This document shows positions 1 to 12,400 of a stretch of DNA of 64,000 nt, piece after piece. Source of the stretch: Escherichia coli (GTDB lineage: Bacteria > Pseudomonadota > Gammaproteobacteria > Enterobacterales > Enterobacteriaceae). The notes beneath the pieces are model-generated. The model was not told the DNA's origin. It saw only the letters and a program-made list of their open reading frames with translations, and did no database searches. A program made the position numbers and the translations under genes. The stretch is taken from NCBI RefSeq assembly GCF_016903815.1, contig NZ_CP069973.1. The stretch is one strand, 5' to 3'. Positions within the stretch are counted from its first letter, which is position 1. Every line of letters begins with the position of its first letter.

Positions 1-1061
1 AATGGGCAGCGCTGCACGTCTCACGCTGGGGCAATGGACGCGGTCGCTTGCTGTTTACCTGGATTGTCCTGCTCGGTGCTGCCGTTGCAGCTCTGTTTGC
101 CAATGATGGCGCGGCGCTTATTTTGACACCGATTGTCATCGCCATGCTGCTGGCTTTAGGGTTCAGTAAAGGCACGACGCTTGCGTTCGTGATGGCGGCC
201 GGGTTCATTGCCGATACCGCCAGCCTGCCGCTTATTGTCTCCAACCTGGTGAATATCGTTTCCGCAGATTTCTTTGGCCTCGGCTTTCGCGAATATGCCT
301 CGGTGATGGTGCCGGTGGATATCGCCGCGATTGTTGCCACGCTGGTGATGTTGCATCTCTATTTCCGCAAAGATATTCCGCAGAACTACGACATGGCGCT
401 GCTGAAATCTCCCGCAGAAGCGATTAAAGATCCTGCTACGTTCAAAACTGGCTGGGTTGTTTTACTGCTTCTGCTGGTGGGATTTTTCGTTCTGGAACCG
501 CTCGGCATTCCGGTCAGCGCCATTGCGGCAGTGGGCGCGCTGATATTATTTGCCGTCGCTAAACGCGGTCATGCAATTAATACGGGTAAGGTGCTACGCG
601 GTGCGCCCTGGCAGATTGTCATCTTCTCGCTCGGCATGTATCTGGTGGTTTATGGCCTGCGCAATGCCGGACTAACGGAATATCTTTCTGGCGTACTCAA
701 CGTGCTGGCGGAAAACGGCCTGTGGGCCGCGACGCTCGGCACCGGATTCCTCACCGCCTTCCTCTCTTCTATTATGAACAATATGCCGACGGTACTGGTT
801 GGCGCGTTGTCCATTGATGGCAGCACGGCATCTGGCGTTATCAAAGAAGCGATGGTTTATGCCAACGTGATTGGCTGCGATTTGGGGCCGAAAATTACCC
901 CAATTGGTAGCCTGGCTACGCTACTCTGGCTGCACGTTCTTTCGCAGAAGAATATGACTATCAGCTGGGGATATTACTTCCGTACAGGGATTATCATGAC
1001 CCTGCCGGTGCTTTTTGTGACGCTGGCTGCGCTGGCGCTACGTCTCTCTTTCACTTTGTAA
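1..1061 (+). CDS. arsB: Arsenite efflux pump ArsB, C-terminal ~352 codons; 5' end lies upstream of the window
   Basis: Polytopic membrane protein translation in frame to stop at 1061; immediately followed by arsC as in the arsRBC operon. Confidence 0.9.
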
Positions 1062-1073
1062 TGAGATATTGAT

Positions 1074-1499
1074 ATGAGCAACATTACCATTTATCACAAC
1101 CCGGCCTGCGGTACGTCGCGTAATACGCTGGAGATGATCCGCAACAGCGGTACAGAACCGACCATCGTCTATTATCTGGAAACCCCACCGACGCGTGATG
1201 AACTGGTCAAACTCATTGCCGATATGGGGATTTCCGTACGCGCGCTGCTGCGTAAAAACGTCGAGCCGTATGAGGAACTGGGCCTTGCAGAAGATAAATT
1301 TACTGACGATCGGTTAATCGACTTTATGCTTCAGCACCCGATTCTGATTAATCGCCCGATTGTGGTGACGCCGCTGGGAACTCGCCTGTGTCGCCCTTCA
1401 GAAGTGGTGCTGGAAATTCTGCCAGATGCGCAACAAGGCGCGTTCACCAAGGAAGATGGCGAGAAAGTGGTTGATGAAGCGGGTAAACGCTTGAAATAA
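1074..1499 (+). CDS. arsC: Arsenate reductase ArsC (141 aa)
   Basis: 141-aa ORF starting MSNITIYHNPACGTSRNTLEMIR, the glutaredoxin-coupled ArsC family with catalytic Cys in the HNPACGTSR motif; 12 bp after arsB. Confidence 0.95.
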   Translation: MSNITIYHNPACGTSRNTLEMIRNSGTEPTIVYYLETPPTRDELVKLIADMGISVRALLRKNVEPYEELGLAEDKFTDDRLIDFMLQHPILINRPIVVTPLGTRLCRPSEVVLEILPDAQQGAFTKEDGEKVVDEAGKRLK

Positions 1500-1545
1500 A
1501 GCGGCGATATCCACTGCCCATAGTTGGTAAAGTGCGCTTTGTTTA

Positions 1546-1584
1546 TGTCGGATGCGACGCTAACGCGTCTTATCCGACCTACAA
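1546..1584. repeat. REP-like palindromic unit downstream of arsC
   Basis: tgtcggatgcgacgctaacgcgtcttatccgacctaca has the GCCGGATG...CTTATCCGGCCTAC-type REP architecture with imperfect dyad symmetry. Confidence 0.6.
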
Positions 1585-1621
1585 AACCGTGCATGGCATG
1601 AAATCTGTAGCGCGTAGCGCA

Positions 1622-1918
1622 TCAGGCAATTTTGCTATTTACGCAGCACTCCTCGCGTAAGAATTCAATTATCGCTTCCAGCATTGCGTATTGCGAAACA
1701 CACATCAGCGTTCGACTCTCACGGTTTTGTTTGACCAGCCCTACCGATACCAGTGCTGAAATATGGTGACTGAGTGTAGAGCCGGGTATCCCAAGCTGCT
1801 TTTGCAACTCACCGACCGGCAAACCTTGTTCCCCCGCTTTGACCAGGTGTTTGAATATGAACAAACGGGTCGGGTGACCTAGCTCTTTCAGCGCTTTAGC
1901 AACTTCTTCCAACTGCAT
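1622..1918 (-). CDS. ArsR/SmtB-family HTH transcriptional regulator (98 aa) with C-terminal cysteines
   Basis: LGHPTRLFIFKHL...STLSHHISALVSVGLV is the ArsR/SmtB winged-helix signature. No CVC motif in helix 3; cysteines are at LMCVSQ and the C-terminal EECC. Confidence 0.85.
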   Translation of the reverse strand: MQLEEVAKALKELGHPTRLFIFKHLVKAGEQGLPVGELQKQLGIPGSTLSHHISALVSVGLVKQNRESRTLMCVSQYAMLEAIIEFLREECCVNSKIA

Positions 1919-1943
1919 ATGACACCCCCTTTGTCTGGTTGAT

Positions 1944-2002
1944 ATTTCGATAATACCAGAAATATCTTGATCTGAATTTCATTTCGATTATTCTGGAAAT
2001 AT
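1944..2002. promoter_or_regulatory. Candidate operator: two copies of a ~22-bp motif in the divergent regulator/permease intergenic region
   Basis: atttcgataataccagaaatat (1944-1965) and atttcgattattctggaaatat (1981-2002), identical except the central CCAG/CTGG swap, between the two divergent start codons. Confidence 0.4.
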
Positions 2003-2013
2003 AGATTTATTCA

Positions 2014-3027
2014 ATGAGGTTACGTATGAGTAGTTGGCTTGCGATGCTGCAAGATGCCGCAGAGATGTTTGTGTTTCTCGCCGTTGAGCTTTCTTTGCTG
2101 TTTATAGTGATTAGTGCCGGTGTGAGCCTGATAAGACAAAAGGTGCCAGACCATAAAATCCAGCAGATGATGGGGGCCAGAAAAGGGAGAGGTTATCTCC
2201 TGGCTGCTCTGTTGGGAGCCGTTACCCCGTTCTGTAGTTGCTCGACAATACCCATGTTACGTGGATTGTTGTCAGCGAAAGCCGGGTTTGGTCCAACCCT
2301 TACTTTTTTATTTGTTTCACCGCTACTTAATCCCATTATCGTCGGACTAATGTGGGTGACCTTTGGCTGGAAAGTGACCTTGTTGTACGCGATTATCGCC
2401 GCCGGCGTCTCCGTACTTGCCAGTATTATCCTGGATTCTCTGGGATTTGAACGTCATATTATTGCCAGTAAAAGCTCATCAGCAAATTGTTGTGCTCCAG
2501 CCAAAACTTCGCCGGGGACGACATATACGCCAATAAAAGTGAGTTGCTGTAGTCCAGCGGCTAAAGCCATTGAGAAACCTGTAGTAAACTGTTGCAGTAC
2601 CAAAGCTGTGGTAAGTATTAATCCCATAAAACTAGCCACCAAAGATGCGTTGCAACAGTTTAAAGATGTACTGCCATATCTTTTGTTAGGGGTATTAATA
2701 GGCTCTTTTATTTATGGCTTTATTCCCTCAGAGTGGATTGCCGCTCATGCAGGGGCAGATAATCCCTTCGCCATCCCATTGAGCGCCGTTGTCGGTATTC
2801 CGCTATATATCCGGGCAGAGGCGGTTATCCCTCTGGCATCTGTTCTGATGACAAAAGGAATGGCTCTGGGAGCATTAATGGCATTAATCATCGGCAGTGC
2901 CGGCGCAAGCCTGACGGAAGTGATATTACTTAAATCAATGTTCAGAATACCGATGATAGTTGCATTCCTGACGGTTATATTAGGTATGGCTATCTTGATG
3001 GGCTATTTGACTCAAATGCTATTTTAA
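2014..3027 (+). CDS. Putative permease, DUF318/YraQ-ArsP-like, with TPFCSCS motif and a Cys-rich loop (337 aa)
   Basis: Multi-TM hydrophobic protein; AVTPFCSCSTIPMLRGLL matches the conserved ArsP-type motif as I recall it; central loop has three vicinal Cys pairs (NCCAP, SCCSP, NCCST). Confidence 0.8.
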   Translation: MRLRMSSWLAMLQDAAEMFVFLAVELSLLFIVISAGVSLIRQKVPDHKIQQMMGARKGRGYLLAALLGAVTPFCSCSTIPMLRGLLSAKAGFGPTLTFLFVSPLLNPIIVGLMWVTFGWKVTLLYAIIAAGVSVLASIILDSLGFERHIIASKSSSANCCAPAKTSPGTTYTPIKVSCCSPAAKAIEKPVVNCCSTKAVVSINPIKLATKDALQQFKDVLPYLLLGVLIGSFIYGFIPSEWIAAHAGADNPFAIPLSAVVGIPLYIRAEAVIPLASVLMTKGMALGALMALIIGSAGASLTEVILLKSMFRIPMIVAFLTVILGMAILMGYLTQMLF

Positions 3028-3607
3028 ATAGATGCCAGCAGTAAACTATAAGGAGCATTGTGAGTGCCTTATCCTTCTGAGTAGAAAATCATAGATAGGA
3101 TAATCTTTAAAAATCACAAATAACTTAACTAATGCTTTGAGAATGATGACGGATCCGTCAGTAAGTCATCAATCGACAATCACCACGCAATCATGCTTCT
3201 CTGACATTTTATCGGAGAAGCAATGTCTCTTTGTTTCAGTGCTATCCCCCCTTTTAAAGGGCAGATTTCAGTCGCCAATACAACACATTTTTAAATACAC
3301 TTTAACCTGGTTCATTATTACACATCTAAAACATCACAAAAATATCACTTCACACACTATCGGTGAACATCATAACTTTTTAAAATGAGCGCTTTTTGAT
3401 AGTTGTTAACGTTTTCCTTTACGATACTATCACTGCCCTTTTTTTATACACAAATATTACCGGGTGGAGATAAAAGGGAAATCAAAGGTAATTATATCAG
3501 GAAGAGATAACGCATTACATTTATTGTGTGTAGAAGAAAATCCATTCCTGTTCTAATTATCCAATTTAAACATCTTAGCATAAAACAAATGATGAATAAG
3601 GAATTTT

Positions 3608-4831
3608 ATGTCAATTGACTTTACCCCAGGTATAATAAATACATATCACGGCGATATTTATAACTGCACAACAAATACCGATAATGCTAAAACGCCAGAC
3701 ACACCGAAGTGGCCTTGCGATAATTTGGAAGAACAACAACCCATTAATTCCACATTCTCTGGAGAAGGATATACCTCTGATCAATATGATTTAGCGCAAC
3801 ACCAACTTCAACAAATTAATGCGTGCCACACGAACACTACATATACAAATGCAGAATACTCAAAAGTTGTGACTCAACTTGTAAGTCTTATTACTAACAT
3901 TGAAACGATAAGTTCGACACCACTTACGCAACAGACACAATCAATACTTAATCAGATTAATAACATTAGATACGAAAAAAACAAAAGTGCTGAATGTCGA
4001 ATCATTGTTGTCGCTAATCCTAAACCCGACAAGGCAATCATAACTAAAATTAGCGTAGAAGAGGGAATACCAGTAAGATTCAGTGTCCAAACCATGTTTT
4101 CAGATACTAATTTTATTGCTGAACAACGAGCTGACTTACCGACTAATATAAAAGATATTCAAAACCTGTATCAAAAAATGACGAAGTTATATATTGAGCA
4201 CAGTGAAAATAAAAACAGGATGAAAGTCTTTGCCGGAACCAACTTTATTGATTTCAATATGACAGGACAGAACCTGTCCGGGTTCGTTCTAACCTTGTCA
4301 AGGTTTTATTTCGAAGATCTACTTAATATAAATTTCACTGACGCAAATTTAGGTGACACTATTTTTTCACATAAAGAACACCCTGCCCCAAAATTATATA
4401 AAGACGAACAATATCTTGACAAACAAATCGAAGGTTTATTTTCAACATTATTAACCATTAATGACAACTTTTTACGAGCAAAAGCGGAAATTGCTTCGAC
4501 AATAATTAAATTCTTAGAGGCCAGGATAACCAATATTTCATACAATGACATATTAAAATATCAGCAAGAATTCAAAAAACAATGTTATAAGCAAGTTAAA
4601 GCCTTTACGACACTCTCCCGATACAATAAAATTCAAACATGGGCAGAAATGTCTGAATATCAATTCGAAGTATTTCAACGCGAGACGCTTAACCCAAAAA
4701 AAATGTCATGCGCACCTTATTTAAAGAGATCGCTACCTGATGAAAAAACTATAAATTATGGGGTGGAAATAGAAACACCAACTGGCAAAAGAATTCGCTT
4801 ATCAAATCATTACCAGAATATAATCCCATAA
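3608..4831 (+). CDS. Hypothetical AT-rich protein (407 aa) with a pentapeptide-repeat segment; possibly the intact counterpart of the K-12 yhiS pseudogene
   Basis: Long ORF in a markedly AT-rich stretch, no signal peptide. The segment [43 protein letters not shown] forms about nine consecutive pentapeptides with [DN][LFM] periodicity. Position between arsC and slp matches yhiS in K-12. Confidence 0.6.
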
Positions 4832-5075
4832 TATGAACATTAGCACTTTATAATCATTGAATAAAAATAGATTTTATGTACCTTTAAAAAAAGGCTATTT
4901 TATGGGGCGATGGATACTCATGTCACGCCCCAAAATTAACAGAATTAAACTAAACAGAAGGGATATAAACATCAGACAGGTTTACGTTACTATCAGGCAT
5001 ATCGCCTCAGAATCAGATGAAAACTATAAAGAAATATCTATTATGGTTTTAATATTTGTTGATAAGGATAGTAAC

Positions 5076-5642
5076 ATGAACATGACAAAAGGTGCACTCA
5101 TCCTCAGCCTTTCATTTTTGCTTGCCGCATGTAGTTCAATTCCGCAAAATATCAAAGGCAATAACCAACCTGATATTCAAAAAAGTTTTGTTGCTGTTCA
5201 TAACCAGCCGGGGTTATATGTTGGTCAACAAGCGCGCTTTGGTGGGAAGGTTATCAACGTTATCAATGGCAAAACGGATACGTTGTTAGAAATCGCTGTA
5301 TTACCGTTGGATAGCTATGCGAAGCCTGATATTGAAGCCAACTATCAGGGCCGACTGCTCGCCAGACAAAGCGGCTTCCTTGATCCAGTGAACTATCGTA
5401 ATCACTTTGTTACCATCCTCGGTACCATTCAGGGTGAACAACCTGGCTTTATCAATAAAGTCCCGTATAACTTCCTCGAAGTGAATATGCAGGGCATCCA
5501 GGTGTGGCATTTGAGAGAAGTGGTTAATACCACCTATAACCTGTGGGATTACGGCTATGGTGCATTCTGGCCGGAACCGGGCTGGGGTGCGCCTTACTAC
5601 ACCAACGCGGTGAGTCAGGTAACACCTGAGCTGGTCAAATAA
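5076..5642 (+). CDS. slp: Outer membrane lipoprotein Slp (188 aa)
   Basis: MNMTKGALILSLSFLLAACSS has a lipobox (LAAC); 188-aa length and synteny match Slp. The ORF-track start at 4857 is an upstream in-frame extension. Confidence 0.9.
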   Translation: MNMTKGALILSLSFLLAACSSIPQNIKGNNQPDIQKSFVAVHNQPGLYVGQQARFGGKVINVINGKTDTLLEIAVLPLDSYAKPDIEANYQGRLLARQSGFLDPVNYRNHFVTILGTIQGEQPGFINKVPYNFLEVNMQGIQVWHLREVVNTTYNLWDYGYGAFWPEPGWGAPYYTNAVSQVTPELVK

Positions 5643-5794
5643 CACCACCGAAAGATGCAGATGCTTTCTCAGCATCTGCATCATGCATTACATCAAATTA
5701 ATACACAGCCAGCTAACTATTATTATAAGCCCTGTCCTGTTAATTACCTTTGGCAAACTGATTATAAAGTTAATGTCCGCACCAGGAGTCGGTT

Positions 5795-6325
5795 ATGTTT
5801 CTTATAATTACCAGGGATACGATGTTCTTCACTGCGATGAAAAACATTCTGAGTAAAGGTAATGTCGTTCATATACAGAACGAAGAAGAGATCGACGTAA
5901 TGTTGCATCAGCATGCCTTCGTCATTATTGATACATTAATGAATAATGTATTTCATTCTAATTTGCTCACTCAGATTGAACGATTAAAACCTGTCCATGT
6001 GATTATTTTCTCTCCCTTTAATATTAAACGCTGCCTGGGGAAAGTACCGGTGACCTTTGTTCCGCGAACTATCACCATCATCGACTTTGTCGCACTCATC
6101 AATGGCAGTTACTGCTCTGTGCCTGAAGCGGATGTGTCCCTTTCGCGCAAGCAGCATCAGGTTCTGAGCTGCATTGCGAATCAAATGACAACGGAAGATA
6201 TTCTGGAGAAACTGAAAATATCGCTAAAAACGTTCTACTGCCATAAACACAATATCATGATGATCCTCAATCTTAAGCGGATCAATGAGTTGGTACGCCA
6301 TCAGCATATTGATTATCTGGTGTGA
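5795..6325 (+). CDS. dctR: LuxR-family regulator DctR/YhiF (176 aa)
   Basis: 176-aa ORF with C-terminal LuxR-type HTH, directly after slp as in the acid fitness island. Confidence 0.9.
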   Translation: MFLIITRDTMFFTAMKNILSKGNVVHIQNEEEIDVMLHQHAFVIIDTLMNNVFHSNLLTQIERLKPVHVIIFSPFNIKRCLGKVPVTFVPRTITIIDFVALINGSYCSVPEADVSLSRKQHQVLSCIANQMTTEDILEKLKISLKTFYCHKHNIMMILNLKRINELVRHQHIDYLV

Positions 6326-6385
6326 TCGATTGATTAATATAAAGAGGCCCAGCAATAAATAGCCAGACCTCCCTTTAATTATACG

Positions 6386-7414
6386 TTATGCAGTAACGCC
6401 TTCCGGTATCAGCGAAGCAATTTGCTTACGCCATTGCGCTTGCTCCTGTTCGCCTTCTGTACGTTGACCATAAAGTTGCGCTATCTGCGTACCATCATGG
6501 GCAAACAATTCCAGACTGGTCACATAACCGTCACTAGCAGGTTTACGGGTTACCCAGGTTTCAGCAATGCTCTCTTCTAATAGATGAAGAGTAAACGTCG
6601 GGTTAAAAATATTCAGCCAACCTTTCATTGGCACCACTTTTTCTACCACGCCAGTGAAAATCTGTACGCAGCCACGGTTGCCAACAAACACCATGATTTC
6701 ATTGCCATCCTGCTGTGCAGATTCAAGAATTTGCGCCAACGCACTGTTGGATACTTTGCAGGCCAAATCGTCTGCCACCAGATTGAACGCCTGTTGGCGC
6801 GTCAGGTTGTGGCGCTTGAGCAACGTAAAAAACTGATGAACGTCGGTCATCGCCCGCCACTCTTGCTCGACCACACTGGCATCGGCTCGCATTTGAACGA
6901 CTGGCGCATCAACGGCTTTTAACTCAAGCGGCGTATTCTCATCAGTGATAAACCGTGCCAGAAGCTCACTCCATGCCGCCATATCGGTATTGTCGGTGGC
7001 ATAAACTTTTAGTAATGCATCGCCCTGATGATCAAAGAACTGAATACTCTGGCGTTCGCCACGAGTCGTATTTTCTTTAATGTGAAAAACACTGGCCCAT
7101 TGATTGAGAAACAGACGCAAATCCAGCGCGCGTGGATTGAGGATCAATCCGGCATGTCCGTTCAAATGCTGGTTTGTGAACGCACCAACTTGCTCATGGA
7201 CTGCATATTCATTACGGCAAATACATTTGGTCTCGCCAACACTTTCGAGCGCCGCCAGAATTTCACGGATATCGCCGCGCATCCGCCACGCATCGTGCGT
7301 GACGCGTGCAAATGCCAGTTCTGCTTCGCTAATATTCATTAAACCTGCGATGTCACGCGCGTACTTTCCGGGATTTTGTTCTTTTAACTCAAGCCAGCGT
7401 GTGTAGTGGTTCAT
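6386..7414 (-). CDS. chuS: Haem-degrading/haem oxygenase protein ChuS (342 aa)
   Basis: 342-aa ORF recognised as the ChuS/HemS/ShuS family, immediately downstream of chuA on the same strand. Confidence 0.9.
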   Translation of the reverse strand: MNHYTRWLELKEQNPGKYARDIAGLMNISEAELAFARVTHDAWRMRGDIREILAALESVGETKCICRNEYAVHEQVGAFTNQHLNGHAGLILNPRALDLRLFLNQWASVFHIKENTTRGERQSIQFFDHQGDALLKVYATDNTDMAAWSELLARFITDENTPLELKAVDAPVVQMRADASVVEQEWRAMTDVHQFFTLLKRHNLTRQQAFNLVADDLACKVSNSALAQILESAQQDGNEIMVFVGNRGCVQIFTGVVEKVVPMKGWLNIFNPTFTLHLLEESIAETWVTRKPASDGYVTSLELFAHDGTQIAQLYGQRTEGEQEQAQWRKQIASLIPEGVTA

Positions 7415-7462
7415 TGTCTCTCTTCCTTCCAGATAAATGCCCCGAAATATCGGGGCAGATGA

Positions 7463-9445
7463 TTACCATTGATAACTCACGAAAATTTTTCCATTACGAC
7501 CATCCTGTGGGATGCCTTGTGGCGACCAGTACTCTTTGTCGAAAGCGTTACCCAACACCAAAGTAGTGGTCATACCTTTGAGCGCCTGTTGTCCTTGATA
7601 ACTGACGTAGAAATCATTCACGCCATAGCCTGGTTGTTTGCTGTAACTGCTGCTGATATGTGTTGAGCGATCGGCAAACGTACCAACCCACCCAACAGAG
7701 AAGCCACTGTGAGCGATCGGAATATTCAGGGTACTGGTAACGGTATCCGGGTTAATGCTGGAGATATATTCCCCAGTATCGGTGTCTTTGCCGCGGGTAC
7801 GGTTATAGGCCACATCAAGGCTAAACAGATCAGTGGTATATTTCGTCATTACATCCCAGCCCCAGATTTTGGCGTTCGGGACGTTATACGACATAGTTGT
7901 CGCCGCCGCGAAATCGACGGTCGTGGAGATGTAATCCTTCGCTTTGGTATCAAAGTAGCTGGCTTTAAATTCCAGGGTATCATTGGACAACATCAGGTCA
8001 TCAAAACGCAGCCCAAAACCGTACTCCTGAGTTTCGTTAGTTTCCGGACGTAAGTTCGGGTTTGGCACCCAATAGTTGGTATAGAAGCGACCAATCGAGA
8101 AGTGCTTAGAATCGTTATACATTTCGCCCATCGTCGGGGCGCGGAATGCCTGGGCATATGAGCCAAATAACATCAGCCAGTTAGTCGGATTGATAGTCAT
8201 CCCCGCACGAGATGACCATTTGTCGGCATCAACATCTTTGTAACCGTCACTGCTACCGCGATAACTGTCATAGCGGGTTCCGCCAAGCAGGGTAATCGGC
8301 AGATCGCGTAAGGTGATCTCATCCTGTAGCCAGCCGGAGCTAAAATCGATTTTTGCTTGCGGGAAGCCCGTCGTCGCGCCGCCCGGATGTTGTTCCTGAC
8401 GATAATACTCACCGCCATATGTCAGTAAGTGAGAAGCGAAACTGTCGGCAAAGAGAGTGGAACGGTTCTCCAGCCTGGCTCCTTTTGTTATCTGTTCACG
8501 ATACTCGCCGGAACTCCCCGTGTTTTGCGCATTAATACGGACTTCCGACCAGTAAATTTTTGCATCTGCATTTAACCAGTCGTTGCCCTGCGGGGCGAGT
8601 TTATAAGAAAGCTGCGCATCGCGTTGAATTGTTGAACGATCAACCATCGGGTTGCTGCTATCAGAAGCCTCAACAGTCTGCGGATTTTTTGGTTCACGCG
8701 CGTCGTTGTTGTAGTAACGCACTAAACCGCTCAGAGACTGGGCTGAATCAATTTGCCAGGTCCCTTTCGCCAGCATGTTATTAATGGACTCGTCATTCGG
8801 CGCGGTTTCACCATTGCTCTGGCGTAAATCACCCCGACCGCGACTGGACCAGGCCACAATACCATCCAGATTTTCAGTTCGCCCAAACGCGCTCGCGCCT
8901 AATCCCAGGCTATGGTCCCCCGTGCCGCCAGTACCAAAGACACGAAAACCACTGCTTTGTCCTTCCTGCAATAAATCTTTTGCATCGACCGTATCGTAGG
9001 AGATCACTCCACCCAGCGCACCACTGCCATACAGTAATGCTGAAGGTCCGCGAACAATCTCAACACGCTTGATCAGCGCCGGATCGAGAAAAGTGCCATT
9101 CAGGTGTCCGGTATCCGTTCCCTGGCGAACACCATCGACAAGAACCAGCACGCCGCGATGATCATAGCCACGCATATTTACATCCTGACCGTTGGTTCGT
9201 CCGGTACCATCAAGAGTAATTCCAGGAACATGACGCAGCAAATCAGTGGCTGAAGTAGCCGTTTGATTTTCAGGAGCGGAAGTGTCGATGACGCTGACCA
9301 TCATAGGCGCTTCGAAGGAACTACGGGCATTCCCCGTTGCCGTAACGGTCATGGTTTCAGTAGCAAAAGCAAACGTTGGCAAGGTGGCAGAAACAGCCAA
9401 AGCCAACAAACTCAAACGCAACGAGGTAAATTGCGGACGTGACAT
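7463..9445 (-). CDS. chuA: TonB-dependent outer membrane haem/haemoglobin receptor ChuA (660 aa)
   Basis: Signal peptide, TonB-box-like N-terminus (ETMTVTA), plug and beta-barrel, C-terminal aromatic residue (ends ...FVSYQW). Confidence 0.95.
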   Translation of the reverse strand: MSRPQFTSLRLSLLALAVSATLPTFAFATETMTVTATGNARSSFEAPMMVSVIDTSAPENQTATSATDLLRHVPGITLDGTGRTNGQDVNMRGYDHRGVLVLVDGVRQGTDTGHLNGTFLDPALIKRVEIVRGPSALLYGSGALGGVISYDTVDAKDLLQEGQSSGFRVFGTGGTGDHSLGLGASAFGRTENLDGIVAWSSRGRGDLRQSNGETAPNDESINNMLAKGTWQIDSAQSLSGLVRYYNNDAREPKNPQTVEASDSSNPMVDRSTIQRDAQLSYKLAPQGNDWLNADAKIYWSEVRINAQNTGSSGEYREQITKGARLENRSTLFADSFASHLLTYGGEYYRQEQHPGGATTGFPQAKIDFSSGWLQDEITLRDLPITLLGGTRYDSYRGSSDGYKDVDADKWSSRAGMTINPTNWLMLFGSYAQAFRAPTMGEMYNDSKHFSIGRFYTNYWVPNPNLRPETNETQEYGFGLRFDDLMLSNDTLEFKASYFDTKAKDYISTTVDFAAATTMSYNVPNAKIWGWDVMTKYTTDLFSLDVAYNRTRGKDTDTGEYISSINPDTVTSTLNIPIAHSGFSVGWVGTFADRSTHISSSYSKQPGYGVNDFYVSYQGQQALKGMTTTLVLGNAFDKEYWSPQGIPQDGRNGKIFVSYQW

Positions 9446-9734
9446 AGCGATTCTCCATGAGGAAAATAAAAAATGCTGGCTGCCTGGGTTAATACCGGGG
9501 TGGCTGGCGAAAAATAAATTTATTTAAAATTCAGAGCGATAATATTCGCCGGGTGAGTTTACAGGCGTTTATATCCCATGAAATTGCCTGGTATCTCGGC
9601 AAATACGCAAAAGCACGCCCTCTTTGTCAGGCAAAACGATATGCCCCATCAGGAGTGAAGAGCGCTGTGCGTTATCCCTTGCAAATGCTATGGTTTTGTT
9701 ATCCATATGGTCGTGTTTTGTTAAGCGCGAACGT

Positions 9735-9753
9735 GATAATGAGAATTATTATC
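9735..9753. promoter_or_regulatory. Candidate Fur box in the chuA upstream region
   Basis: gataatgagaattattatc matches the 19-bp Fur consensus GATAATGATAATCATTATC at 16 of 19 positions; about 290 bp upstream of the chuA start. Confidence 0.55.
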
Positions 9754-10086
9754 GATCAATTTTTTATGATCAAGCTTTTTTTTAACCGCCATTAACACAA
9801 TAAACAGGGGGTTATGAAACTTATCCTGCGCCCTGTAAACCACTTTGTTTTTATGGTTATTCCCCCATGACCTCATTACTAAACTTTGTCGTTAGCAGTG
9901 ATAATTTTCTCTTCGCTTTGCTCTGCAAGCCTCGATATCTGTGGGTTCTCAGCTTTTTCCCGCGCTGAAATTTAGTCGGTAACAAGAACGTTAGCTGACG
10001 AAGCATCTTGATAAAAATCAAAAATAAATACGCTTGTAACGCCTTGCGTATTGAATCGACGGTTGTATTTCATATATAACTCAAAT

Positions 10087-10105
10087 GATAATAATGATCA
10101 TTCTC
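10087..10105. promoter_or_regulatory. Candidate Fur box upstream of the chuT operon
   Basis: gataataatgatcattctc matches the Fur consensus at about 15 of 19 positions; lies in the chuA-chuT divergent region just 5' of the chuT ATG at 10129. Confidence 0.55.
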
Positions 10106-10128
10106 AATTTGATAAGAGTTCTCATATT

Positions 10129-11043
10129 ATGCCAAGGATCATCACCAGGCCGTTTCTTTTTTCCCCACTAACGTTATGTATTTCAGCCGTGGCCTCTGCC
10201 GCGAAGACCGCGGTAAAACGAAAAAAAATGTTTACGGCAGTACTGGCTCTTAGCTGGGCTTTTAGCGTAACGGCTGCCGAACGTATCGTGGTCGCAGGAG
10301 GATCGCTGACGGAGCTAATCTACGCGATGGGCGCTGGCGAACGCGTGGTTGGTGTCGATGAAACGACATCTTATCCACCAGAAACCGCCAAACTGCCGCA
10401 TATTGGCTACTGGAAACAACTCAACAGCGAAGGCATTTTGTCACTTCGCCCGGATAGCGTAATTACCTGGCAGGATGCCGGGCCACAAATTGTGCTCGAC
10501 CAACTACGAGCGCAGAAAGTCAACGTCGTTACCCTGCCGCGTGTGCCTGCCACCCTTGAGCAGATGTACGCCAACATTCGCCAACTGGCAAAAACGCTAC
10601 AGGTTCCTGAACAAGGCGAGGCGCTGGTGACACAGATCAACCAACGCCTGGAGCGAGTACAGCAAAACGTGGCGGCCAAAAAAGCCCCGGTTAAAGCCAT
10701 GTTTATTCTCTCCGCAGGCGGAAGTGCGCCACAGGTTGCCGGTAAAGGCAGCGTCGCGGACGCCATTCTTTCGCTTGCCGGAGCAGAAAACGTCGCAACC
10801 CACCAGCAGTACAAAAGCTACAGTGCAGAATCACTGATTGCGGCCAATCCAGAAGTGATTGTCGTAACCTCACAAATGGTCGATGGCGATATTAATCGGC
10901 TACGTTCTATTGCCGGAATTACCCACACTGCCGCATGGAAAAACCAGCGCATTATCACCGTTGATCAAAACCTGATTCTGGGAATGGGTCCGCGTATTGC
11001 TGATGTCGTTGAGTCTTTACACCAGCAGCTTTGGCCGCAATAA
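10129..11043 (+). CDS. chuT: Periplasmic haem-binding protein ChuT
   Basis: Class III periplasmic binding protein. The ORF track opens at 10051 with TTG; I chose the first ATG (MPRIITRP...). A later start at 10228 (MFTAVLALSW...) is also possible. Confidence 0.8.
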   Translation: MPRIITRPFLFSPLTLCISAVASAAKTAVKRKKMFTAVLALSWAFSVTAAERIVVAGGSLTELIYAMGAGERVVGVDETTSYPPETAKLPHIGYWKQLNSEGILSLRPDSVITWQDAGPQIVLDQLRAQKVNVVTLPRVPATLEQMYANIRQLAKTLQVPEQGEALVTQINQRLERVQQNVAAKKAPVKAMFILSAGGSAPQVAGKGSVADAILSLAGAENVATHQQYKSYSAESLIAANPEVIVVTSQMVDGDINRLRSIAGITHTAAWKNQRIITVDQNLILGMGPRIADVVESLHQQLWPQ

Positions 11044-11062
11044 ATGGATTTAAATCAGACGA

Positions 11063-12400
11063 ATGAACGCAAATAACACCCTGGATCTCACGCCACATTT
11101 TGCTTTAGACGGTGATCAGCCATTTAAAGACAGGCGCGCCATGATGCCGTTTCGTGGAGCCATTCCGGTTGCCAAAGAGCAACTGGCACAGACCTGGCAA
11201 GAGATGATCAATCAAACGGTATCACCACGTAAGCGACTGGTTTATCTACACATTCCTTTTTGTGCGACACACTGCACGTTTTGTGGTTTTTATCAGAACC
11301 GTTTTAATGAAGATGCGTGTGCTCATTATACCGACGCCCTGATTCGTGAAATAGAAATGGAAGCGGACAGCGTATTGCATCATTCTGCCCCCATCCACGC
11401 GGTCTATTTCGGTGGCGGTACGCCTTCCGCGCTTTCGGCACACGATTTGGCCAGAATCATCACCACATTACGAGAAAAGCTGCCACTGGCCCCTGATTGT
11501 GAAATCACTATCGAAGGCCGGGTACTGAATTTTGACGCTGAGCGAATCGATGCTTGCCTTGATGCAGGAGCAAACCGCTTCTCAATTGGTATTCAGTCGT
11601 TTAACAGCAAAATCCGTAAGAAAATGGCCCGCACCTCGGATGGCCCAACCGCCATTGCGTTTATGGAAAGCCTGGTCAAACGCGACCGTGCTGCGGTGGT
11701 CTGTGATCTGCTGTTTGGCCTGCCGGGTCAGGATGCGCAAACCTGGGGAGAAGATCTGGCTATTGCTCGCGATATCGGTCTCGACGGCGTCGATCTCTAT
11801 GCGCTCAATGTCCTGCCCAATACACCGCTGGGCAAAGCCGTGGAAAATGGGCGCACTACCGTGCCCTCTCCGGCAGAACGTCGCGATCTTTATCTGCAAG
11901 GGTGTGATTTTATGGACGATGACGGTTGGCGCTGCATCAGTAACAGCCACTGGGGCCGTACCACACGCGAACGCAATCTCTATAACCTGCTGATAAAACA
12001 AGGTGCCGATTGTCTGGCCTTTGGTTCCGGAGCCGGCGGTTCGATTAATGGTTACTCCTGGATGAACGAACGCAATCTTCAGACCTGGCATGAATCCGTC
12101 GCGGCAGGCAAAAAACCGCTGATGATGATCATGCGTAACGCCGAACGTGATGCGCAATGGCGTCATACCTTGCAGTCAGGTGTTGAAACAGCGCGTGTAC
12201 CGCTGGATGAACTTACGCCACATGCCGAAAAACTCGCGCCGTTACTGGCTCAATGGCACCAAAAAGGCTTAAGCCGCGATGCGTCAACTTGCCTGCGGCT
12301 GACTAATGAAGGTCGTTTCTGGGCAAGCAATATTTTGCAGTCTCTTAATGAACTAATTCAGGTACTTAATGCGCCAGCGATTGTGCGTGAAAAACCATAA
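11063..12400 (+). CDS. chuW: Radical SAM enzyme ChuW, HemN-like anaerobilin synthase (445 aa)
   Basis: CxxxCxxC radical-SAM motif (FCATHCTFCGFY) in a 445-aa HemN-like protein within the chu operon. Confidence 0.9.
   Translation: MNANNTLDLTPHFALDGDQPFKDRRAMMPFRGAIPVAKEQLAQTWQEMINQTVSPRKRLVYLHIPFCATHCTFCGFYQNRFNEDACAHYTDALIREIEMEADSVLHHSAPIHAVYFGGGTPSALSAHDLARIITTLREKLPLAPDCEITIEGRVLNFDAERIDACLDAGANRFSIGIQSFNSKIRKKMARTSDGPTAIAFMESLVKRDRAAVVCDLLFGLPGQDAQTWGEDLAIARDIGLDGVDLYALNVLPNTPLGKAVENGRTTVPSPAERRDLYLQGCDFMDDDGWRCISNSHWGRTTRERNLYNLLIKQGADCLAFGSGAGGSINGYSWMNERNLQTWHESVAAGKKPLMMIMRNAERDAQWRHTLQSGVETARVPLDELTPHAEKLAPLLAQWHQKGLSRDASTCLRLTNEGRFWASNILQSLNELIQVLNAPAIVREKP

Follow-up and report, generated by a model that had tools for sequence, protein, structure and literature searches.

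A 64,000-nucleotide stretch of Escherichia coli DNA (assembly GCF_016903815.1, contig NZ_CP069973.1; "the window" below) carries, just behind the canonical arsRBC arsenic-resistance operon, a divergent pair of genes for an ArsR/SmtB-type regulator and an ArsP-family permease. Sequence comparison supports reading this pair as the E. coli member of the SpArsR-ArsP kind of methylarsenite sensor and efflux system, which is described from Shewanella. The pair is very probably an arsenical-responsive efflux unit, and we put the probability that the unit is selective for trivalent organoarsenicals at roughly 0.7. A preliminary description of the locus had proposed a second, possibly organoarsenical-specific resistance module at this place, and this proposal gains support from the regulator's cysteines, the gene layout, the operators and the linkage of related pairs to arsH.

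In the proposed mechanism, a dimer of the 98-residue ArsR-family protein would bind two ATTTC-N10-GAAAT palindromes in the 107-bp region between the genes and repress both its own gene and that of the permease. A trivalent organoarsenical, for which two thiol ligands suffice, would bind Cys91 and Cys92 and release the repressor. Methylarsenite (MAs(III)), reduced roxarsone and related aromatic arsenicals are the candidate inducers. The permease, modelled as six transmembrane helices and two re-entrant helical hairpins, would export the organoarsenical by means of the proton-motive force. The organoarsenical probably binds to the permease at Cys-Ser-Cys, near the tip of the first hairpin, and a cytoplasmic loop rich in Cys-Cys pairs is a probable capture site. 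The module would complement ArsB, which handles inorganic As(III). We infer the inducer, the substrate, the energy coupling and the topology; the searchable literature yielded no characterisation of the E. coli regulator and permease genes.

Regulator family and cysteine arrangement

The regulator gene lies at 1622-1918 on the minus strand (stop codon included), 122 bp beyond arsC. Its product matches the NCBIfam model for ArsR/SmtB metalloregulators (NF033788) with 61.9 bits against a cutoff of 55, and the Pfam hidden Markov models HTH_20 and HTH_5 at 2.4e-14 and 1.3e-6. Identity with the canonical ArsR encoded two genes upstream is 23%. As the preliminary description had observed, the metalloid site of type 1 ArsR proteins is missing and cysteines stand at the C-terminus instead. 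Where R773 and E. coli chromosomal ArsR carry the ELCVCDL site with Cys32, Cys34 and Cys37, the regulator reads GLPVGELQ against ELCVCDLC. Its only cysteines are Cys73, Cys91 and Cys92, and the chain ends in EECCVNSKIA. All three are invariant in 119 of 119 homologues; 94 of these have no further cysteine behind the CC pair, and the remaining 25 have an extra one there.

Among solved structures, the best match is AfArsR (PDB 6J05, 4.7e-10), followed by YgaV and BigR. In the alignment with AfArsR, EECC falls on ENCC, which contains Cys95 and Cys96. The regulator shares this vicinal C-terminal pair of the type 2 site and has no counterpart of the third ligand, Cys102, its chain stopping six residues past the CC pair. 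A dimer modelled with a linker in AlphaFold2 (AF2) reached a predicted TM-score (pTM) of 0.71. PADLOC defence models gave generic winged helix-turn-helix (Csa3-like) matches to the regulator only, and these were dismissed as domain-level similarity.

The closest functional comparison is with SpArsR, whose ligands are Cys101 and Cys102 only and which responds to MAs(III) and not to As(III) (PMC13236881, PMC11868830). A working biosensor combines SpArsR of S. putrefaciens 200 (Sput200_1227) with the promoter of the neighbouring arsP gene (Sput200_1226), with MG1655 ΔarsRBC as host, and NdArsR is a second ArsR called MAs(III)-specific (PMC12124457). The SpArsR sequence used here was translated from the construct in the supplement of PMC12124457, a PDF text with dropped bases in which one frame shift was bridged. 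The alignment is borne out by an intact open reading frame (ORF) of Shewanella profunda, which departs from that text in two residues.

The E. coli regulator is about 56% identical to SpArsR and 58% identical to the S. profunda orthologue. An alignment offset of +10 reproduces the published numbering, so that Cys91 and Cys92 of E. coli correspond to Cys101 and Cys102 of SpArsR. The two proteins also have an upstream cysteine in common (Cys83 in SpArsR, Cys73 in E. coli), and neither has any further one. SpArsR ends three residues past its CC pair, and NdArsR shows the same C...CC pattern. The E. coli regulator has the SpArsR-type arrangement of a vicinal pair with no third C-terminal cysteine, and its layout and site sequences suggest that it likewise controls an adjacent arsP promoter through palindromes. 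The concern that Cys73 could serve as a third As(III) ligand is settled, because SpArsR and NdArsR carry the same cysteine; the equivalent residue of SpArsR evidently does not confer an As(III) response. These correspondences support treating the E. coli regulator as the counterpart of the methylarsenite sensor SpArsR.

Intergenic region and predicted operators

The divergent promoter/operator region between the two genes spans 1919-2025 (107 bp) and contains two direct repeat units of 37 nt, each carrying one ATTTC-N10-GAAAT palindrome. The predicted operator O1 occupies 1944-1963 (ATTTCGATAATACCAGAAAT), and O2 occupies 1981-2000 (ATTTCGATTATTCTGGAAAT), 45 nt upstream of the permease ATG at 2026. 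The pattern has only two matches in the window, where 0.17 would be expected, and 2 of 100 shuffled sequences reached two. Two sites in the S. putrefaciens arsP promoter, AATTCGATAATACCAGAAAT and ATTTCCATAATTCCAGAAAT, are identical to O1 of E. coli at 19 and 18 of 20 positions, respectively. Promoter-like hexamers overlap the palindromes on the plus strand (1939-1968, TTGATA-18-TATCTT) and on the minus strand (2014-1987, TTGAAT-16-AATAAT); such sites are no commoner here than in shuffled sequence and count as consensus matches only.

Conservation follows the palindromes. In an alignment of seven loci they stand out as conserved blocks between diverged flanks, and of the 34 loci fetched by then, 25 have the operator pattern next to the promoter of the regulator or the permease. 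Among these 25 are a Klebsiella arsR2-arsH operon, an IncHI2A island, a Vibrio plasmid and metagenomic relatives whose permease is 39% identical. In metagenome-assembled genomes (MAGs) of Acidobacteria, an exact 18-mer operator core adjoins a gene for a regulator 38-39% identical to that of E. coli, followed by arsD-arsA; conservation of the operator therefore reaches far beyond Gammaproteobacteria.

Permease sequence and predicted structure

The permease gene (2026-3027, plus strand) encodes 333 residues. The preliminary description placed both genes correctly. For the permease, an in-frame ATG at 2014 would give 337 residues; ATG 2026 is the likelier start because a GAGG lies 6 nt upstream of it, the NCBI Prokaryotic Genome Annotation Pipeline (PGAP) starts there and homologues begin there. 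Residues 13-334 of the 337-residue form match Pfam ArsP_1 (PF03773, formerly DUF318) at 2.8e-52. Both members of the pair announced beforehand, a divergent ArsR/SmtB regulator and a DUF318-type permease, are indeed present, as the ORF list and the Pfam and NCBIfam matches show. With the ArsP encoded at the SpArsR locus of S. profunda, the permease shares 51% identity over 346 residues.

The motif TPFCSCS, whose Cys-Ser-Cys is presumably the substrate thiol pair, was read directly from the codons at 2224-2244 (plus strand; residues 71-77 in the 337-residue numbering) and is invariant in closer homologues. The sequence C(S/T)C is universal in ArsPs of ars operons, and a "tPF" prefix marks ArsP cluster 2 (PMC4435449). 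The permease carries both elements. The motif had been offered as a sign of ArsP; it is present, but CSC by itself is not diagnostic, since it is common across the PF03773 superfamily, including SO_0444 Cu/Zn exporters and SaoE (Haft preprint), and occurs in 62 of 93 diverse full-length representatives. The permease scores 109.2 bits against the SO_0444 model (cutoff 300) and 87.6 bits against the SaoE model (cutoff 325). No SAO ABC-transporter genes lie near the pair in the locus annotation of E. coli strain 7/2, which is 100% identical to the window.

Solved structures gave no sequence match to the permease. An AF2 model built from 99 sequences reached a mean predicted local distance difference test score (pLDDT) of 88.5 and a pTM of 0.84, with residues of about 155-199 disordered and of low confidence. 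The modelled helices fall into two repeats, and in each a long helix is followed by a helical hairpin, a broken helix and one more helix. In the first hairpin, TPFCSCS would cover the short non-helical turn between helices 52-66 and 71-83 (333-residue numbering) and the start of the latter. In this model the Arg/Lys-rich loop behind helix 1 would be cytoplasmic and the first hairpin would enter from the cytoplasm. Helix order and the positive-inside rule would likewise place the central Cys-rich loop (2449-2625, plus strand) in the cytoplasm. This loop, with the Cys-Cys pairs NCCA, SCCS and NCCS, is hypervariable between species in length and sequence. Its CC pairs are kept in Escherichia, Salmonella, Aeromonas, plasmids and Shewanella. 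A DNA tandem repeat was looked for beneath the loop, and none was found.

Neighbours of the permease in AFDB50 are nearly all named "permease". Homologues there from Campylobacter, Helicobacter and Arcobacter are 28-34% identical with a TM-score of about 0.8. Two Shigella entries, 97% identical, are truncated (A0AB36PK37 of S. flexneri 2a 301, 257 residues; A0A0I0R8U0 of S. sonnei, 223 residues), which suggests that they are pseudogenes.

Gene neighbourhoods in other genomes

The pairing of regulator and permease is the constant feature across the sampled loci, and its surroundings vary; linkage to arsenic genes turns up repeatedly, in several arrangements that are independent of one another. 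The pair follows arsRBC in E. coli, E. fergusonii, E. whittamii and Citrobacter gillenii, and it follows arsRDABC within a Citrobacter prophage. The Salmonella chromosome has the order arsRDABC, arsH, regulator and divergent permease; arsH comes immediately after the regulator in the direction of transcription, and its assignment is backed by 405 bits where the cutoff is 292. On pESI and a Citrobacter IncFII plasmid, the order is arsA, arsD, an extracytoplasmic function (ECF) sigma gene, arsH, regulator and divergent permease; this whole block occurs on 120 plasmids. An IncHI2A plasmid carries arsCDABCC-PTP-permease-arsR-arsH on one strand, with a permease 47% identical, and Staphylococcus pSSAP1 carries arsR-permease adjoining arsDA..RB.

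In Aeromonas, the permease is divergent from a regulator-arsR2-arsD-arsA-acr3-arsC cluster, which would stand under two different ArsR types. A. piscicola (6195-11979 in the numbering of the fetched locus) shows the full order; in several species of the genus, arsD and arsA belong to an operon that opens with the SpArsR-type regulator gene and runs divergently from the permease gene. On a Klebsiella plasmid, a 63%-identical regulator with the same cysteines heads an arsH operon, and Klebsiella accounts for 1310 of the 2224 records that match the related arsH-sigma-arsD-arsA block. ArsH is an organoarsenical oxidase (PMC6205960), and among the contextual arguments its repeated linkage to the regulator speaks most strongly for an organoarsenical and against an inorganic ligand.

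Not every pair has such company: about half of those sampled, for example in A. veronii, Vibrio, Enterovibrio and a 5.8-Mb genome, have no ars gene in the DNA fetched. Adjacency to an ars operon, as expected of ArsP permeases, is present in E. coli. Pairs standing alone indicate that the unit is self-sufficient, so the arsenic link is strong and not universal.

Several further features of these loci are worth recording. The sigma gene embedded in the regulator-arsH-sigma-arsD-arsA operon of plasmids resembles SigZ (139.7 bits, under the cutoff of 168.65); in fetched-locus numbering it lies at 5217-5762 on pESI and at 7082-7627 on the Klebsiella plasmid. On the pESI-like plasmid CP052812 of S. 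Infantis, the pair (6582-8047, locus numbering) adjoins arsH-arsD-arsA and lies about 7 kb from blaCTX-M-65. A 2025 pESI paper lists arsH, arsD and arsA as REP-strain-associated, and the word "permease" appears nowhere in its text (PMC12504007). On this Klebsiella plasmid, pCMC387P_P2 of K. pneumoniae (8346-9501, locus numbering), the 63%-identical regulator subtype is divergent from a GNAT N-acetyltransferase gene and not from a permease; the same operator motif lies at 8699-8718, and an aquaporin gene and another GNAT gene are part of the island.

Distribution and history in E. coli

The preliminary description called the module accessory and took such genes to be missing from this position in K-12. 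K-12 has arsC, 628 bp and then yhiS, and the pair is not in all E. coli; it is, however, no rare island, being present in 2223 of 5426 complete genomes (about 41%) and lost from 59%. It occurs in backgrounds with and without the chu heme-uptake locus, with an identical regulator protein.

Besides K-12, the pair is missing from E. coli C, O157:H7 Sakai and ST131, and all four share one scar of 616-628 bp (4664-5291 in K-12, fetched-locus numbering). What survives within this scar is some 70 bp from the 3' end of the regulator gene and some 20-65 bp of the central permease gene, after which the sequence rejoins the window at 3290-3299. The stretches that match the window are 1500-1691, 2651-2673 and 3290-3607, and the gene remnants have diverged. 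Because the "empty" allele contains internal remnants of both genes, it represents a deletion and not an empty target site, and the common scar suggests a single old deletion allele, not repeated loss or a recent insertion. Insertion of a mobile element was considered and rejected: no insertion sequence (IS), integrase or flanking repeat was found at the junctions. Two old alleles, intact and deleted, thus seem to cut across the phylogroups. On the ST131 chromosome NZ_CP063774, arsR and arsB are lost as well, and arsC stands alone between dinQ and the scar.

Comparing the window with strain A31 gives a synonymous divergence (dS) of 0.13-0.20 for the pair and 0.14 for arsC; against E. fergusonii the pair has 0.29-0.30 and arsC 0.34. 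Divergence on a par with arsC suggests that the pair is ancestral at this locus, and selection appears to maintain it in the genomes that still have it. Both genes are under purifying selection: the ratio of nonsynonymous to synonymous divergence (dN/dS) is 0-0.05 for the regulator and 0.05-0.17 for the permease. The regulator protein WP_001175589.1 is identical in strains whose regulator genes differ by a dS of 0.20. The G+C content of the pair is about 45%, that of arsBC 51-56% and that of the AT-rich yhiS region 33%.

Alternative explanations

Several observations weigh against an organoarsenical-selective unit. This reading of the E. coli genes rests on comparison, not on experiment, and the SpArsR sequence came from PDF text with lost bases, a gap that the near-identical S. 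profunda ORF covers. The reading leaves the invariant Cys73 unaccounted for. PF03773 also holds the Cu/Zn exporter SO_0444, with CSC in common, and Campylobacterota homologues are only about 28-34% identical to the permease, which gives no more than an estimate of how far it stands from C. jejuni ArsP. About half of the sampled pairs lack an ars neighbour, and the frequent linkage to arsD and arsA, which handle As(III), would fit an inorganic substrate too.

The last point leads to an unlikely alternative, in which the permease exports inorganic As(III)/Sb(III), as a back-up or alternative to ArsB or as the membrane partner of plasmid ArsD/ArsA, and the regulator senses As(III) with Cys73 of the partner subunit as third ligand. 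It would account for the arsD-arsA linkage in Aeromonas and the Acidobacteria MAGs, for the 120 plasmid blocks (no arsB is listed in the two examined), for the invariance of Cys73 in all 119 homologues and for the 25 with an extra cysteine past the CC pair, reminiscent of the three-cysteine AfArsR site; a proposal that ArsP may couple to ArsA is also cited in a review (PMC6205960). Yet SpArsR and NdArsR have the Cys73 equivalent and are reported to be MAs(III)-selective, ArsB is already adjacent in E. coli, the Aeromonas arsA has its own acr3 next to it, and As(III) is reportedly no substrate of C. jejuni ArsP (PMC6205960). A related idea, rather harder to credit, makes the permease a minimal elevator-type transporter of the ArsB/DASS fold class whose disordered poly-Cys-Cys loop is a built-in metallochaperone. 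Its similarity to ArsB and DASS proteins rests on predicted structure only. Because arsH-arsD-arsA adjoin the pair on pESI-type plasmids and no ArsB or Acr3 lies in the region examined, such a permease could partner the ArsA ATPase there; if so, it would be an undescribed ATP-driven organoarsenical pump. That the pair instead senses and exports a soft metal (Cu, Zn, Cd, Hg or Ag) like SO_0444, with ars adjacency an accident of island assembly, is improbable. The permease's best NCBIfam match is indeed SO_0444 (109 bits), then SaoE; Cys-Cys pairs and CSC motifs bind Hg, Cd and Cu(I) too (Haft preprint); many pairs stand alone; and a mer operon lies 4 kb off on the Citrobacter IncFII plasmid. 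The score nevertheless falls far under the SO_0444 cutoff, SO_0444 is predicted to stand under a ZntR-type regulator and not an ArsR, the regulator subfamily heads arsH operons on many Klebsiella plasmids, and both the cysteines and the operator match those of the MAs(III) sensor SpArsR.

Still less probable is a thiol-based redox or reactive-sulfur sensor of the BigR/YgaV type that governs export of sulfur compounds. YgaV and BigR rank just behind AfArsR among structure matches, one distant permease homologue sits between thioredoxin-like and sulfite-reductase-like genes, and TauE/SafE genes lie nearby on some elements. The redox cysteine in helix 2 of BigR, however, is a lysine in the regulator (LMLVCTLV against LFIFKHLV), the BigR model gives 38.5 bits against a cutoff of 155, and such a sensor would explain neither the linkage to arsH, arsD and arsA nor the resemblance to SpArsR. 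That the genes are a remnant in decay, without any function left in E. coli, is scarcely credible. Loss from 59% of complete genomes, the truncated Shigella entries and the often broken yhiS-like gene next door would fit decay, but the regulator protein has stayed unchanged over a dS of 0.20, dN/dS is 0-0.17 over both genes, and operators and reading frames are intact.

Surrounding sequence features

The window begins inside arsB, whose 3' part occupies 1-1061. The end gene of the canonical arsRBC operon, arsC, follows at 1074-1499 on the plus strand (NCBIfam NF007456, 305.5 bits) and is annotated the same way in strain 7/2. PGAP names the pair in that strain "ArsR/SmtB family transcription factor" and "permease". 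Downstream of it come a yhiS-like ORF of 407 residues, slp, dctR, chuS and chuA. The yhiS-like ORF is intact in the window (3608-4831, plus strand) within a 33% G+C stretch, and NCBIfam and PADLOC searches gave no family match for it. Other strains have it in broken form: IS5 splits the K-12 copy, A31 and GF60 carry frameshifts, and the ST131 copy is truncated.

An element resembling repetitive extragenic palindromic (REP) sequences lies at 1540-1600, between arsC and the regulator's stop codon; a 38-bp piece of it (about 1546-1583) matches other E. coli genome sites at 100%. The chu locus (chuS, chuA and further genes) extends from 6386 to 9445 and beyond, between dctR and yhiD, and is missing from K-12 and strain A31. 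An Rfam search of window positions 1-6000 returned no families.

Implications

Work on methylarsenite toxicity and on arsenic biosensors is often done in K-12-derived hosts, and K-12 has only the scar. If the organoarsenical reading is right, about 41% of sequenced E. coli hold a native trivalent-organoarsenical sensor and pump that the laboratory strain is without, and the same would hold for many plasmids and chromosomes of Salmonella, Klebsiella, Citrobacter and Aeromonas. The E. coli regulator and its operators would then be a host-native part for methylarsenite biosensors. Close relatives of the pair also sit beside blaCTX-M-65 on poultry-associated pESI, where only arsH, arsD and arsA have been noticed; this linkage bears on co-selection of drug resistance through arsenical feed additives such as roxarsone. 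The pair leaves the categories of arsenic resistance as they stand, and its genes are still annotated as a "permease" and a "transcription factor".

Comparison with known systems

Among regulators, AfArsR of Acidithiobacillus ferrooxidans, with its type 2 As(III) site of Cys95, Cys96 and Cys102, aligns column for column at the vicinal pair closing the C-terminal helix. It differs in having a tyrosine where the E. coli regulator family has the invariant Cys73, and its Cys102 is without an equivalent in E. coli.

Campylobacter jejuni ArsP, a methylarsenite and roxarsone(III) efflux permease, is the founder of TCDB 2.A.119 and of Pfam ArsP_1. To our knowledge, it is the only biochemically characterised ArsP. 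The E. coli permease belongs to the same Pfam family, has C(S/T)C in a membrane segment and is encoded beside ars genes; the relationship is distant, as judged from Campylobacterota homologues only. SO_0444, a Cu/Zn efflux protein of Shewanella oneidensis, and SaoE belong to the same superfamily and share CSC, but their regulators and neighbourhoods differ. YraQ, a K-12 paralogue in PF03773 of unknown function, has the same two-repeat architecture. The permease is nevertheless not of YraQ type, in keeping with the ArsP-like permease of the preliminary description: identity reaches 31% over 114 residues only, YraQ has CTCC in place of CSC, and it is without an ArsR partner or ars neighbours. 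ArsB and DASS/Pho90 proteins, members of the elevator-type ion-transporter superfamily, show 8-14% identity, and their 430-540 residues compare with 333 in the E. coli permease.

The Shewanella SpArsR-ArsP system differs from the E. coli pair in three respects. The E. coli regulator is without the 10-residue N-terminal extension of SpArsR; the intergenic region measures about 107 bp in E. coli and about 220 bp in Shewanella; and the neighbours are a glutaredoxin (Grx)-type arsRBC operon in E. coli but arsC genes of the low-molecular-weight protein tyrosine phosphatase (LMW-PTP) type and a CVC-type arsR in Shewanella. The likenesses reach both genes and the DNA between them. The first three bases of the S. 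putrefaciens arsP promoter fragment are CAT, a start codon on the opposite strand, and the S. profunda orthologue is divergent; the Shewanella arsR and arsP genes therefore appear to be divergent too, in the same regulator-permease order. The operator half-sites ATTTC and GAAAT recur with the same spacing of 10, and the S. profunda ArsP also has TPFCSCS and a Cys-rich central loop.

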